Of a stretch of DNA of 64,000 nt, positions 7,747 through 35,306 are shown in pieces. This DNA comes from Eubacteriales bacterium (lineage in GTDB: Bacteria > Bacillota > Clostridia > Oscillospirales > SIG627), in assembly GCA_045602025.1 (NCBI GenBank), contig JAZSAT010000011.1, positions 11,173 to 75,172 of the forward strand. The letters are read 5' to 3'. The notes under the pieces are model-generated. The model saw nothing but the letters and a program-made list of their open reading frames with translations, was not told where the DNA came from and did not search any database. Numbering within the stretch: the first letter of the stretch is position 1; each line of letters starts with the position of its first letter. Both the position numbers and the translations under genes were made by a program.

Positions 7747-7771
7747 AATAAGCTTCGTTCTTCCCAATATC

Positions 7772-7870
7772 CTTGTATCAGGCATCCCTACGTTGGCATT
7801 ATCCAAATCAGGTTCTCGGTCGAAGGTTACACCTTCCTCTCAGCCTGTTATACAAGCTCCCGTTGATTCA
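7772..7870 (-). promoter_or_regulatory. TPP riboswitch
   Basis: Minus strand GGGAGC...GCTGAGAG...GACC...AACCTGATTTGGATAATGCCAACGTAGGGA fits the THI-box consensus; upstream of the thi operon. Confidence 0.93.
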
Positions 7871-7882
7871 ATTGTTTACTGC

Positions 7883-26548: not shown

Positions 26549-26552
26549 AACA

Positions 26553-26720
26553 GAAGATAGAGGCGCACTTTTCTATGAGTAACTTTTTCCAGCGGCTGCC
26601 GTGGCCGAAAAAGCGAAAGGAGTAGGTGCCGAAGCGGTTTTCTTTTCGGCAAAGAGGCTTGCTGGCAGCTGGGAATAAGATCTCAGGTGTTGTCGCAGTG
26701 ATGCGGAGAGCTATCCAACT
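26553..26720 (+). promoter_or_regulatory. Lysine riboswitch (L-box)
   Basis: GATAGAGGCGC...AGTA...GAAAGG...GCCGAA...TGTCGC...GCGGAGAGCTATC; upstream of dapA-lysC-lysA; terminator-like stem at 26751-26783. Confidence 0.88.
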
Positions 26721-26810
26721 TCCCAAGGGATATATTTTGCGTTTTATTGGAGTTGGTAGCTGTTTTGCAGCTGCCGATTTTTTTGGAAATTTTCAGAGAG
26801 AGGGAACAAT

Positions 26811-33860: not shown

Positions 33861-33934
33861 GCGGGTATAGTTCAGTGGTAGAATGTCAGCTTCCCAAGCT
33901 GAAAATGCGGGTTCGATTCCCGTTACCCGCTCCA
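33861..33934 (+). tRNA. tRNA-Gly(CCC)
   Basis: GCGGGTATAGTTCAGTGGTAGAA...TTCCCAA loop...GTTCGATTCC...CTCCA. Confidence 0.95.
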
Positions 33935-33937
33935 TGT

Positions 33938-33976
33938 AAAAAACCTCTTTTGCCTACCGGACAAAAGAGGTTTTTT
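33938..33976. repeat. Long hairpin (terminator-like); inverted paralog at 35111-35144
   Basis: AAAAAACCTCTTTTG-cctaccgga-CAAAAGAGGTTTTTT. Confidence 0.8.
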
Positions 33977-33977
33977 A

Positions 33978-34150
33978 CAATGATATCCGTTCCTGGCGGA
34001 ACGGGTGATATACCCTGCGGGTATGATATCTGCTTCGCAGATGATATATGCCTTCGGCATATGAAGGAACGGATATCATATCATGCTTGCGAAGCAAGTA
34101 TATCATACGCCGTTAGCCGTATATCATATCGCGTCAGCGATATATCATTG
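33978..34150. repeat. Mirror-symmetric array of TGATAT/ATATCA-delimited hairpins
   Basis: TGATAT at 33981, 34006, 34024, 34042; ATATCA at 34073, 34078, 34100, 34121, 34142; seven short stem-loops; terminal IR CAATGATAT/ATATCATTG. Confidence 0.85.
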
Positions 34151-34176
34151 AAAAACACAGCATTTTATGATATAAT
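34148..34176 (+). promoter_or_regulatory. Sigma-A promoter of four-helix-bundle gene
   Basis: TTGAAA-17-(TG)TATAAT; the -35 overlaps the array end. Confidence 0.75.
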
Positions 34177-34198
34177 GCCGTTGAAATAAGGTGTATTT

Positions 34199-34552
34199 GT
34201 GTCCGAAAACAAATTACTTGACTTATCTTTTGAATTTGCGGTTGCTATTGTTAATCTTGTTGACGGTGTAACTGCACCGAAAAGTTCTTATATGACCGAT
34301 CAGCTTGCAAGAGCCGGCACTTCTGTTGGAGCTAACATCCACGAAGCACAGTACGCACAGAGCAAGAAAGATTTTGTGGCAAAGTTAGAGATTGCACTCA
34401 AAGAATCCAACGAAACAAGTTATTGGTTGAAATTGATGTGCGAAACTAAAAGGATAGATAATGCAACCTATCAACACGCGGAGAAACTTTGCGGCAATAT
34501 CCGCAGACTGTTGATTGCATCTTGCAAAACCGCAAAGGAGAATAATAAATGA
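34199..34552 (+). CDS. Four-helix-bundle protein (TIGR02436 / 23S-IVP / Avd-like fold)
   Basis: DQLARAGTSVGANIHEAQYAQSKKDFVAKLEIALKESNETSYWL signature. Confidence 0.9.
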   Translation: MSENKLLDLSFEFAVAIVNLVDGVTAPKSSYMTDQLARAGTSVGANIHEAQYAQSKKDFVAKLEIALKESNETSYWLKLMCETKRIDNATYQHAEKLCGNIRRLLIASCKTAKENNK

Positions 34553-35037
34553 AACGCGTAATTGTAATCGGGTGTCCCGGAAGCGGCAAAACAACTTTTG
34601 CAGAAAAACTAAATAAGATAACAGGGTTGCCGCTGTATTATCTTGATGCTATTTGGCACAAGCCTGATAAAACGCATATCTTAAGGGAAGAATTTGATCA
34701 AAGAATACAAGAGATTTTTGCAACAGATGCGTGGATCATTGACGGCAATTACAGCAGGACGGTTGAAATGCGGCTTAGAGAATGCGATACCGTCATTCTC
34801 TTTGATCTGCCGACAGAGGTTTGCTTGCAGGGGGCAACGGAGCGGCTTGGAAAGGGTCGCTATGATCTGCCGTGGATAGAAAAAGAATTGGATCCGGAAT
34901 TCGAAGGCTTTATTAAAGACTTTTCCAAGCATTCTTTACCAAAACTATATGAGTTAATTGAAAAGTATCGAGCAGAAAAACAAGTAATCATTTTTAAAAG
35001 CAGAAAAGAAGCGGATGACTTTTTGAGTAGAGCATAA
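34549..35037 (+). CDS. FlaR/topology-modulation-type P-loop kinase (adenylate kinase-like)
   Basis: GCPGSGKT, LDAIWH, WIIDGNY; ATGA overlap with the upstream gene. Confidence 0.85.
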   Translation: MKRVIVIGCPGSGKTTFAEKLNKITGLPLYYLDAIWHKPDKTHILREEFDQRIQEIFATDAWIIDGNYSRTVEMRLRECDTVILFDLPTEVCLQGATERLGKGRYDLPWIEKELDPEFEGFIKDFSKHSLPKLYELIEKYRAEKQVIIFKSRKEADDFLSRA

Positions 35038-35110
35038 ATATACCTTTCCGGTAACCCTCCGATTGCCTTAGGTATATTTACTATTCAGTTGCGTATGGTA
35101 ACTCTTTCAA

Positions 35111-35144
35111 GAAACCCCTTTTGTCGGTAGGCAAAAAGGGGTTC
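35111..35144. repeat. Hairpin, inverted paralog of 33938-33976
   Basis: AAACCCCTTTTG-tcggtagg-CAAAAAGGGGTT; core TTTTGTCGGTAGGCAAAA is the reverse complement of TTTTGCCTACC(G)GACAAAA. Confidence 0.7.
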
Positions 35145-35306
35145 CCTTTTTAACTGAAACCACCCTTTTGGGTGGAGAAAGTATTTTTGTTGATTTTATG
35201 GAGAGCAACAGAAAAATGAATCATATGCCCGAGAAAGGATCTTCTTGATTTGTACGAAAAGAAATGGTAAAATCTTTTTAGAAAATTTCGGTCAATGGGA
35301 GAAGAT

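Follow-up and report, generated by a model that had tools for sequence, protein, structure and literature searches.

In REPIN-RAYT systems, short structured REP/BIME repeats are dispersed at the 3' ends of genes, and a low-copy RAYT gene is flanked by cognate repeats. Other elements target hairpins, such as IS1397 in the loops of REP sequences and group IIC introns after terminators. The intervening sequences (IVSs) of rRNA genes are selfish elements located in the apical hairpin loop of a stable RNA or structured region and bordered by complementary sequences (available part of PMC4990558; bioRxiv 10.1101/2024.02.27.582315). The protein family PF05635/TIGR02436 (23S rRNA IVP or S23p family) has the conserved motif GxxRxxxSxxxNxxE (PMC3936711). 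Its Xanthomonas homologue is described in the available part of PMC4990558 as a homopentameric toroid, and Avd of DGRs is a remote relative of the family with the same fold, which is also pentameric (available part of PMC10053308). The RNA motif Gut-1 (RF01706) was listed as a likely non-coding RNA by Weinberg et al. 2010 (PMC2864571), the available text of which gives no function, PF05635 link or mobile-element context for it.

We analyzed a window of 64,000 nucleotides, meaning the whole stretch of DNA under study, from the Eubacteriales assembly GCA_045602025.1, in which a mirror-symmetric array of small hairpins lies between a tRNA gene and a gene encoding a four-helix-bundle protein (Table 1). 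We propose, with a probability of about 0.55, that this array is the structured cis (control) module of an IVS-like mobile element of ~1.2 kb, which extends from about 33935 to 35152 and carries the four-helix-bundle gene. The element appears to settle beside or inside transcription terminators.

Table 1. Features of the element and its host gene, with positions in the window
Feature	Position	Strand	Basis
tRNA-Gly(CCC), host gene with the element adjoining its 3' end; itself outside the element	33861..33934	+	ARAGORN; Rfam tRNA, 73.7 bits
Bidirectional terminator hairpin (A-run, 18-bp perfect stem, 9-nt loop, T-run); left border	33935..33979	.	Inverted repeat, 18 nt, 100%
T-arm, four mini-hairpins with the linker (A/G)TGATAT ahead of each	33978..34064	+	Gut-1 match
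Centre segment, reverse complement of 33980-33994	34065..34079	+	Inverted-repeat search
A-arm, three hairpins with the linker ATATCAT after each	34073..34150	+	Direct-repeat search and weak Gut-1 match
Promoter of the gene, -35 TTGAAA overlapping the last linker, extended -10 TGATATAAT	34148..34176	+	Promoter scan
Four-helix-bundle gene, GTG start, 117 aa, PF05635/TIGR02436 (23S rRNA IVP / S23p family)	34199..34552	+	Profile search
Cargo gene, 162 aa, P-loop kinase-like (AAA_17/18)	34549..35037	+	Profile search
Terminator-like hairpin, probable right border	35112..35151	.	Inverted match of its inner stem and loop to those of the left hairpin

A sequence check placed all the repeats, stems and inverted repeats and the promoter of the preliminary description at the positions given there. 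In the left half, TGATAT begins at 33981, 34006, 34024 and 34042, and the four units carry the stems CCGTTCC/GGAACGG, ATACCC/GGGTAT, ATCTGC/GCAGAT and ATATGCC/GGCATAT, just as had been described. The long-range inverted repeat, previously put at 14 bp, is in fact 15 nt long and 100% complementary (33980-33994 with 34065-34079). Its two halves would form a helix, P0, around hairpins 2-4, in competition with hairpin 1; this competition had already been proposed. The linker of the A-arm is the reverse complement of that of the T-arm. The repeat TATATCAT lies in the right half at 34099, 34120 and 34141, and GATATCATATCAT is also found there, at 34072-34084. The right-half units claimed at 21-22 bp are thus present, with a spacing of 21 nt, but their stems are weaker than was implied: TGCTTGC/GCAAGTA includes one G-T pair, and TACG/CGTA has just 4 bp with an 8-nt loop. 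The 9-bp terminal inverted repeats were recovered as a perfect core (CAATGATAT/ATATCATTG) inside a 24-nt terminal inverted repeat matching at 79%.

The RF01706 covariance model matched positions 33978-34052 of the plus strand with 58.6 bits (gathering score 50) over model positions 1-77, so that the left arm fits the model end to end, and the right arm contains a weaker inverted copy on the minus strand (34095-34183, 30 bits). The preliminary description held that the array matched no described family, and had itself named an Rfam match as evidence against this view; the match overturns it. Like the model, in which three hairpins with variable stems are parted by a conserved UGA(A/U)AU linker, the array has three hairpins with co-varying stems, here with the linker UGAUAU, and both the model and the arrays derive from uncultivated gut bacteria. 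On this basis, we identify the window array as a full, two-armed copy of Gut-1. The Rfam model covers one 77-nt arm, whereas the copy described here consists of two arms in mirror image, together with a long-range helix and a terminator hairpin on either side. Linkers in our arrays vary as well (TGATAT, TGAAAT, ATGATG, TGAAGT and TGATTCCAT), so some copies escape the Gut-1 model, and by their record titles the relatives come from animal as well as human guts. A literature search, beyond whose reach lay Additional file 1 of PMC2864571, returned no publication tying Gut-1 to PF05635/TIGR02436 or to insertion into terminator loops.

The 117-aa protein downstream of the array scored 84.7 bits against PF05635 (cut-off 33.8) and 93.6 bits against TIGR02436 (cut-off 24). 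Two homologues were retrieved from the PDB, 2rld (E 8.6e-41) and 2gsc (E 7e-4), and both entries have five chains. Across 43 sequences, the motif residues R38, S42, N46 and E49 show little or no variation, and the first position of the motif is Q35 rather than G. Y52, D58, K62, E69 and E72 are further polar residues that are conserved. Because this protein has no recognisable nuclease, recombinase or polymerase domain, it cannot be called a transposase.

The promoter (TTGAAA-17 nt-TATAAT) matches at 11 of 12 positions and has a TG extension. The claim that the end of the array supplies its -35 is borne out here, and a -35 overlapping the last linker together with a -10 was present in 41 of 67 homologous loci. 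The TGATAT within the extended -10, by contrast, had been counted as one more unit of the array; we rejected this, since the same TGnTATAAT also occurs in clades with other linkers. The cargo gene begins within the stop of the four-helix-bundle gene, the two overlapping as ATGA. The nearest NCBIfam name for its product is 'DNA topology modulation protein', below the cut-off of that model. Cargo orthologues in four other species have neither an array nor a four-helix-bundle gene upstream, and the genes that follow the four-helix-bundle gene fall into 60 clusters among 74 loci. As judged from these neighbourhoods, the cargo gene is variable and the four-helix-bundle gene is the one constant gene of the element.

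To count arrays we used the Rfam model together with a mirror 6-mer count; a de novo detector was dropped as too noisy, since it reported 68 arms for the genome and still 18 for a Markov control. In this genome, each of the four intact PF05635/TIGR02436 genes immediately follows a mirror array, an arrangement for which we estimate a chance expectation of ~0.7% per gene. Among the 67 homologous loci of other species with at least 300 nt of upstream sequence, 57 have a mirror array, compared with 14 of 779 control windows, and 10 have no clear array; the commonest count is 4+4 linkers. The orientation relative to the gene is the same in 51 of 54 arrays. These surveys uphold the proposal that the array and the four-helix-bundle gene form one module. 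In 41 related genomes, both Gut-1 and the gene were found in 26, Gut-1 alone in five, the gene alone in none and neither in 10; for the 16 families represented by a single genome, the corresponding numbers were six, two, zero and eight. One of the five genomes with Gut-1 and no gene is 63% complete and another is 96% complete.

Linker sequence also follows the protein clade: TGATAT-type linkers accompany proteins resembling that of the window (65-97% identity), and ATGATG accompanies proteins at ~52-57%. Plain co-descent could be an alternative source of this link. The commonest linker of gene-less copies (orphans) was that of a resident gene-linked array in both of the two genomes examined, and seven of the 22 orphans in the present genome have linkers absent from every resident gene-linked array. 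The array does not turn over faster than the gene (identity of 81-89% and 80-90%, respectively). We also considered whether arrays lie upstream of PF05635 genes throughout the phylum. In a sample of 28 loci from the wider phylum, most had no hairpin array and 6-mer scores were mostly 2-4, and of 27 such loci that were folded, six had z below -3; the arrangement is therefore not general at that level.

As RNA, the array has a minimum free energy of -78.8 kcal/mol, compared with -47.6 +/- 4.2 in 200 dinucleotide shuffles, none of which equaled it (z -7.35); the minus strand gave z -6.87 and DNA parameters gave z -7.73. The minimum-energy fold pairs arm with arm and does not form every local hairpin. 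We rejected arm-to-arm pairing as the structure of the array, because complementarity between the arms is limited to the linkers and the hairpin bodies show no co-variation between arms (by eye, in one array alignment). In an alignment of 16 arrays, which also supplied the structure used for the counts, 96.4% of paired cells were retained as pairs versus 87.3% in shuffles, and 20 pairs were changed on both sides versus 11.6, neither value being reached in any of 500 shuffles. The preliminary description was therefore right that stem sequences differ while pairing is kept: stems co-vary and linkers are fixed. The consensus fold of the 16 arrays also predicts P0, one pair of which is G-U in 14 of them, and this helix was present in no fewer than 26 of 51 arrays and absent from all 51 shuffled controls. 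Read on the gene-sense strand, the ratio of G-T to A-C pairs is 21:2 for the A-arms of homologous loci, 27:5 for P0 and 6:0 for orphan A-arms, and the loops are of the GNA or GNRA type.

These structural features bear on whether the array might instead be a double-stranded, iteron-like operator, whose words of 6-9 bp would be bound in both directions by a transcription factor, possibly the four-helix-bundle protein itself, to control the promoter. The overlap of the last linker with the -35, the occurrence of the words in both orientations and their difference between protein clades would all fit such an arrangement. However, the words are spaced at 16 to 26 nt without helical phasing, and the spacers between them are palindromes that co-vary and that have GNRA loops and G-T pairs specific to one strand, none of which duplex binding would require. 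Most copies, moreover, have no promoter to control, and we regard an operator as very unlikely.

The array is a dispersed, multi-copy repeat, most copies of which lack the gene, a property that the preliminary description had not noticed. In this genome, 33 Gut-1 matches (11 above the cut-off) collapsed into 25 loci, and one further array was missed by the model, giving ~26 array loci in all. About 22 of them are gene-less copies in elements of ~350 bp. A tRNA or tmRNA gene on the same strand ends 150-420 nt ahead of the four-helix-bundle gene in 44 of 60 homologous loci, and 25 identities are represented among these RNAs. In genome G015, the homologous terminator follows the same tRNA as in the window and is succeeded by neither array nor gene. 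At the other end of the window element, a 12-nt inverted match to the left hairpin at 35125-35136 points to the terminator-like hairpin as the probable right border. A copy of the locus-specific left hairpin occurs downstream in only eight of 48 loci and in mixed orientation, so that no general right-border rule can be drawn for tRNA-linked elements.

Eight orphans are flanked by unique, split halves of a terminator, which places them in the loop of an intrinsic terminator. The copy on contig C47 is a gene-bearing element of 1.33 kb in the same kind of position, closed by two split-terminator halves. One orphan, C52:58461-58870, can be aligned with it as three collinear blocks from which the gene and cargo are missing; gene-less copies of ~350 bp thus derive from gene-bearing ones by internal deletion. 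The orthologous site is empty in 11 species for the copy on C45 and in at least 10 of 19 species for that on C40, and one copy is 96% identical between species, compared with 80-89% for its flanking gene. The location of copies after tRNA and tmRNA terminators or within terminator loops points to a mobile element. The junctions of the split-terminator orphans show no target-site duplication and consist of only 2-5 T-rich bases. Separately, we considered carriage by phages or plasmids and rejected it: five loci lie in viral contigs, all near contig ends, no plasmid match was obtained, and the single phage match was weak and confined to the coding part.

Mobility of this kind could be provided by a transposase or recombinase whose gene lies elsewhere or belongs to the host, with the arrays as its binding sites and the four-helix-bundle gene as the most frequent passenger. 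Inverted, multiple subterminal repeats do recall transposon ends, the elements are clearly mobile, and the small protein has no known catalytic domain. Yet the assembly, at 92.8% completeness, yielded no Y1 transposase (PF01797), IS110-type transposase or reverse transcriptase (RVT_1). The arms lie inside the element and not at its ends, and the gene, unlike the cargo, is constant and has its promoter fused to the array. Such an outside enzyme seems decidedly unlikely to us.

The distribution of copies also speaks to the original view of Gut-1 as a free-standing small RNA gene, which would place it beside the four-helix-bundle gene by chance. Its listing as a likely non-coding RNA (available part of PMC2864571) and the covariation agree with this view. 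A promoter scan of the window locus, however, found none ahead of the Rfam-sense arm, which has a terminator upstream, and the sole strong promoter points away from the array; the scan of the array region likewise found no sigma-70-like promoter on the minus strand. Given in addition an adjacency to the gene far above chance and copies located within terminator loops, we consider this explanation extremely improbable.

A structural explanation that needs no protein partner is that the array alone, as RNA or in the form of DNA hairpins, insulates 3' ends, as a bidirectional terminator or stabiliser or as a site processed by host RNases, and so shields the host tRNA or gene from the DNA inserted next to it, in which case the four-helix-bundle protein would serve another purpose of the element. 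Copies always follow or split terminators with fixed polarity. In all eight split-terminator orphans, hairpin H1 comes first after the co-directional gene; a U-rich tract follows H1, and the tails contain further terminator-like hairpins. The mirror layout would present the same arm order to transcripts from either side, the GNRA and GNA loops are compatible with such a role, and the gene is absent from most copies. Excision of rRNA IVSs by RNase III at the terminal stem, reported in the available part of PMC4990558, is a further parallel. What insulation leaves unexplained is that linkers are invariant within an array but differ between protein clades, that the gene never occurs without arrays in the 41 genomes, and that the modal count is 4+4. 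We therefore consider an insulator alone possible but rather unlikely.

Under the preferred reading, in which the array is the control module of a mobile element with its four-helix-bundle gene, a single-stranded arm would fold into three to five mini-hairpins that display identical linkers of 6-9 nt. We suggest, tentatively, that the toroidal protein pentamer reads these linkers, of which there are four or five per arm. The single-stranded form may be either RNA from read-through transcription or DNA that replication exposes. By binding to the array, the protein would couple its expression to the array by way of the -35 that the last linker overlaps, and the same binding might mark all copies with a shared linker for the upkeep or spread of the element. 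A broader and more doubtful extension is that PF05635 pentamers are the dedicated partner, possibly a processing or mobilising factor, of a class of hairpin-invading elements that would take in rRNA intervening sequences together with the elements of tRNA trailers and of terminator loops. The pentamer ring would then read the linkers of single-stranded mirror arrays, allowing structure-guided mobility or maintenance without a recognisable transposase.

Gut-1 has been in Rfam since 2010 without a function or an organism, and the link between array and gene gives it a testable partner. PF05635/TIGR02436 is a large family known only as a passenger of rRNA IVSs and as a distant relative of DGR Avd, and it now has a concrete partner too. 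The idea of an 'intervening sequence', so far tied to rRNA helices, now extends to terminator hairpins and tRNA trailers, and the repeat family described here causes breaks in genome assemblies of common gut Clostridia. If the protein binds or moves the arrays, this would be a new mechanism, and if the hairpin-invading class is real, it would provide the first biological role for Gut-1 and for a very large protein family.

Compared with known systems, the window system is not a DGR, because the whole assembly contains no reverse transcriptase (RVT_1); the neighbours of the gene are a tRNA and the P-loop kinase-like gene, and a sequence profile did not retrieve the Avd PDB entry at E <= 1. The elements resemble MITEs in that short copies are internal-deletion derivatives of a longer element, as the C52 orphan is of the C47 element, and they resemble hairpin-targeting insertion sequences in that insertion is aimed at hairpins. 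They differ from both in that the long copies lack a transposase or intron reverse transcriptase and no target-site duplication was seen, and the insertion point here is the loop of intrinsic terminators.

With REPIN-RAYT systems, the elements share dispersed structured repeats at 3' ends, a single low-copy protein gene bordered by repeats that belong to it, the co-occurrence of gene and repeats, and a repeat sequence that tracks the protein clade. The partner here, however, is a 117-aa four-helix-bundle protein and not a Y1 HUH transposase (no PF01797 in the assembly), and the repeat is a set of different hairpins joined by identical linkers instead of one conserved palindrome. In contrast to the rRNA IVSs of Coxiella, Leptospira and CPR bacteria, which lie in 23S or 16S rRNA, our elements are located after tRNA or tmRNA terminators (that of tRNA-Gly for the window copy) or within the loops of protein-gene terminators. 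Besides a hairpin array, they contain a promoter of their own and variable cargo, and they have many derivatives without the gene. What they have in common with rRNA IVSs is a selfish nature, a place in the apical loop of hairpins, the same protein family (S23p/IVP) as the only gene, here the only constant gene, and a similar enclosure, as the window copy combines the gene with inverted hairpins at both borders and the C47 copy is closed by split terminator halves. One of the phylum loci (L152) is itself a 23S rRNA IVS with a PF05635 gene.

The hairpin array is a conserved, co-varying and strand-biased structure that is tied to the four-helix-bundle gene and its promoter and belongs to a mobile element that targets terminators. 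The array belongs to the RNA family Gut-1, and the gene to PF05635/TIGR02436. The T-arm (linker TGATAT) matched the Rfam model of Gut-1 (RF01706) over its entire length, scoring 58.6 bits against a gathering score of 50, and the A-arm (linker ATATCA) matched it on the opposite strand at 30 bits. The preliminary description had found no described system for the array and had named a match to a known family as evidence against itself; on this point it is not supported. Gut-1 is itself without explanation: it was reported as a candidate non-coding RNA found only in human gut metagenomes, and the available passages of that report state no function (Weinberg et al. 2010, PMC2864571). Searches for the family's name or accession returned, in the text available, only one further work, a 2026 structure-prediction paper, and literature searches found nothing linking Gut-1 to PF05635/TIGR02436 or to terminator loops.

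In other respects the sequence of the array agreed with the preliminary description. Each of the four T-arm units led by TGATAT forms a separate stem-loop, and a perfect 15-nt inverted repeat connects the start of the array with its centre. Repeat analysis placed three units ending in ATATCAT in the A-arm at a spacing of 21 nt, and inverted-repeat analysis gave CAATGATAT and ATATCATTG as the array ends. The right-hand stems are present, but their strength had been overstated, as one contains a G-T pair and one is only 4 bp long. The last bases of the array supply the -35 box of the promoter TTGAAA-17-TATAAT, which carries a TG extension and matches at 11 of 12 positions. The array folded much more stably than shuffled sequences, with z-scores of -7.35, -6.87 and -7.73 (either strand; RNA or DNA parameters).

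Features of the window, in window positions
Feature	Position	Remarks
TPP riboswitch	7768-7873	65.8 bits, ordinary
PF05635 gene fragment	1528-1701	G000:C11:12700-12873 in the window's own genome; probably a decayed copy
Lysine riboswitch	26550-26721	91.8 bits, ordinary
tRNA-Gly(CCC)	upstream of array	
Bidirectional terminator	upstream of array	18-bp, inverted-repeat analysis
Mobile element	about 33935-35152	right border inferred
Mirror hairpin array	33978-34150	
T-arm units, starts	33981, 34006, 34024, 34042	
Four-helix-bundle gene	34199-34552	families PF05635 and TIGR02436

The tie between array and gene is real. The window's genome (1.81 Mb, 55 contigs) contained 33 matches to Gut-1 at E <= 1, of which 11 exceeded the cut-off. 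Merging gave 25 loci, and in most of them a minus-strand arm comes after a plus-strand arm. Of the five PF05635 matches in this genome, one is a fragment and four are intact genes, each with a mirror array directly upstream; one of these arrays has the linker TGATTCCAT/ATGGAATCA and was undetected by the Rfam model. By our own arithmetic, arrays occupy about 0.3% of this genome, and the chance of finding one in a given 300-nt upstream region is about 0.7%. The fragment covers only profile positions 48-105, and its upstream region lacks an array.

Using these four proteins as queries and one genome per species, we collected 80 homologous loci from assemblies with labels such as Faecousia, Acutalibacteraceae and Oscillospiraceae. 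Arrays were scored by at least six repeats of a 6-mer and its reverse complement, counting loci with at least 300 nt upstream (n = 67). The proposed association was borne out, with a mirror array in 57 of the 67 loci (commonest count 4+4) versus 14 of 779 control windows taken from these loci; in five of these 14 (L036, L037, L038, L065 and L087), the 6-mers look like further arrays. In the remaining 13 of the 80 loci, the sequence breaks less than 300 nt from the gene, which is what a repeat at this place would lead one to expect. The T-arm came first in 51 of 54 arrays. Gut-1 matches occurred in 31 of 41 related genomes, up to 64 per genome and many at contig ends; 26 of these relatives had gene and arrays, 5 arrays only, none the gene only, and 10 neither. 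With families represented by single genomes (n = 16), the corresponding counts were 6, 2, 0 and 8, giving by our own arithmetic a one-sided Fisher probability of about 0.004, although kin are not independent. TGATAT-type linkers accompany window-like proteins (65-97% identity), and ATGATG accompanies proteins at about 52-57%; less common words are TGAAGT, CTTCAC and GTGATG.

About 2 kb before the window start, a second two-armed array with linker TGAAAT (G000:C11:9017-9182) follows a tRNA-Leu gene and a terminator, ends in ATCATTGAAA, 17 nt and TACAAT, and faces a 513-aa gene instead of a four-helix-bundle gene. Some arrays are arranged in tandem. Upstream of L073, an array with promoter and a three-codon remnant precedes a second, complete array with gene; at L037 and L047, a second array begins soon 3' of the gene. 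L017 retains the A-arm and promoter, its T-arm being replaced by four copies of another word, TGCACCCCC, plus the complement. In other families of the phylum, distant PF05635 genes (L131, L137, L148 and L153) are preceded by mirror repeat arrays without hairpin spacers, for example about ten tandem 8-mers and then their near-complement, or an arm rich in GT with an AC-rich one after it, and mirror repeats may be a wider trait of the family. L152 is a classical IVS within 23S rRNA.

The usual module runs from a same-strand tRNA or tmRNA gene through terminator, T-arm, centre and A-arm, whose end, ATCATTGA, lies 17 nt before TATAAT, to the ribosome-binding site and the gene. Among the 60 loci whose sequence extends far enough, 44 have a tRNA or tmRNA with its end 150-420 nt 5' of the gene (median about 263); 25 identities were represented, including three tmRNA genes. 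The promoter with a linker-overlapping -35 was found in 41 of 67 loci. The following cargo gene is highly variable (60 clusters among 74 loci), with Pfam matches to mixed small enzymes (histidine phosphatase, methyltransferases, nucleotidyltransferases, GNAT, ASCH and MatE); that of the window is P-loop kinase-like, and upstream of its orthologues in four other species neither an array nor a four-helix-bundle gene was found. In about half of the 80 loci the cargo ATG overlaps the preceding stop as ATGA, a precise junction that recurs with unrelated cargo clusters. Terminators after different tRNA and tmRNA genes share the inner stem and loop TTTGTC-TACCNGA-CAAA while their outer stems differ (L014, L036, L049, L054, L062 and G000:C11:8975-9015, all before arrays); this core may be part of the element or a footprint.

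In the window's genome, eight gene-less copies are flanked by unique 11-18-nt inverted repeats, one bearing an A-run and its partner a T-run; each pair is a native terminator split in two. Inside the halves lie 2-5 T-rich bases, a hairpin (H1) with a GTAA-type loop, the T-arm, centre and A-arm, a tail of 130-170 nt containing terminator-like hairpins of its own, and H2, an inverted hairpin that resembles H1. In all eight copies, H1 adjoins the stop codon of a co-directional gene. We compared two copies with orthologous sites. The 345-bp copy on contig C45 splits a terminator that is intact and array-free in the 11 other species' loci compared, and it shares 96% identity with a copy from another species, versus 80-89% for the flanking gene. 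The copy on C40 is missing from at least 10 of 19 species, where the flanks lie 24-165 bp apart; it is present in one, and four carry other insertions of 1.3-4.5 kb. A gene-bearing copy of 1.33 kb on C47 is inserted into the loop of a different terminator (H1, array, promoter, gene, methyltransferase-like cargo, hairpin and H1-like right end), and a 410-nt gene-less copy aligns with it in three collinear blocks, skipping gene and cargo. Searches of the window's assembly turned up no Y1 transposase, IS110 transposase or reverse transcriptase; lacking a reverse transcriptase, the element is not a DGR. Tails of gene-less copies (e.g., G000:C40:19770-19900 and C34:40850-40990) share a conserved block of about 28 nt. 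On its 5' side lie a promoter-like TTGGCA and, 16-17 nt further on, a TAAAGT-like box; on its 3' side are a short hairpin and a T-run. The block could be the gene for a tiny RNA of about 40-50 nt within the element.

The left terminator of the window's own copy is native. In the related genome G015, a homologous terminator likewise trails the same tRNA, and the next feature is an ordinary gene. At the same place, G014 has a short TGAAAT array and a different gene, and its homology with the window ends at the array's first bases. A second terminator-like hairpin, 3' of the cargo, carries the inner stem and loop of the left hairpin in inverted form; on this basis we place the element as listed in the table, with an inferred right border. 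The module at L014 is 90% identical to that of the window in DNA and 97% in protein (array 85%, gene 90% in DNA), whereas the adjoining tRNA-Gly(CCC) is only 72.5% identical. This difference suggests transfer between lineages, and the module looks younger than its neighbourhood.

Alignment of 16 TGATAT-clade arrays showed invariant linkers, first 14 nt and centre, and variable hairpins. Their consensus fold comprises a long-range helix, P0, pairing the array start with the centre, and five local hairpins. As had been proposed, stems differ while pairing is kept: 20 of 49 pairs change on both sides, and 96.4% of cells are paired versus 87.3 +/- 0.7% in shuffles, a figure flattered by deriving the structure from the same alignment. 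None of 500 shuffles reached any of five measures, and slid controls paired 18-61% of cells. On the gene-sense strand, G-T outnumbered A-C pairs in A-arm stems (21 vs 2) and P0 (27 vs 5), compared with 3 vs 5 in T-arm stems; the A-arms of 51 gene-less copies had 6 vs 0. A-arm loops on this strand are GAA, GCA, GTA, GCAA, GTAA and GAAA, and T-arm loops are their complements. These strand-specific mismatches and loops indicate selection for sense-strand folding in the A-arm and P0 at least, whether as RNA or as single-stranded DNA. In co-directional genes, this strand doubles as the lagging-strand template. Linkers are spaced 16-26 nt apart with no preference for helical repeats, which argues against a rigid protein on duplex DNA.

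PF05635 genes have been seen within cas loci and rRNA insertions, without explanation (PMC3936711; PMC10910872; bioRxiv 10.1101/2024.02.27.582315). Solved homologues of the four-helix-bundle protein are pentameric rings. We suggest, with a probability of about 0.35, that the protein binds the 4-5 identical linkers displayed between the hairpins of each arm; such binding could feed back on the -35 box that a linker overlaps. The main rival takes its model from rRNA IVSs and their RNase III stems: the array would serve as a protein-independent insulator or processing site. Linker binding by the protein would explain why invariant linkers stand beside free-running stems, why the modal count is 4+4, why linkers track the protein clade and why the gene never occurs without arrays. 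Among known systems, the element behaves like rRNA IVSs, although its site is not in rRNA; like REPIN-RAYT, although without an HUH transposase; and like MITEs, although without target duplication. The proposed linker reading by a pentamer would resemble that of TRAP, which reads spaced triplets.
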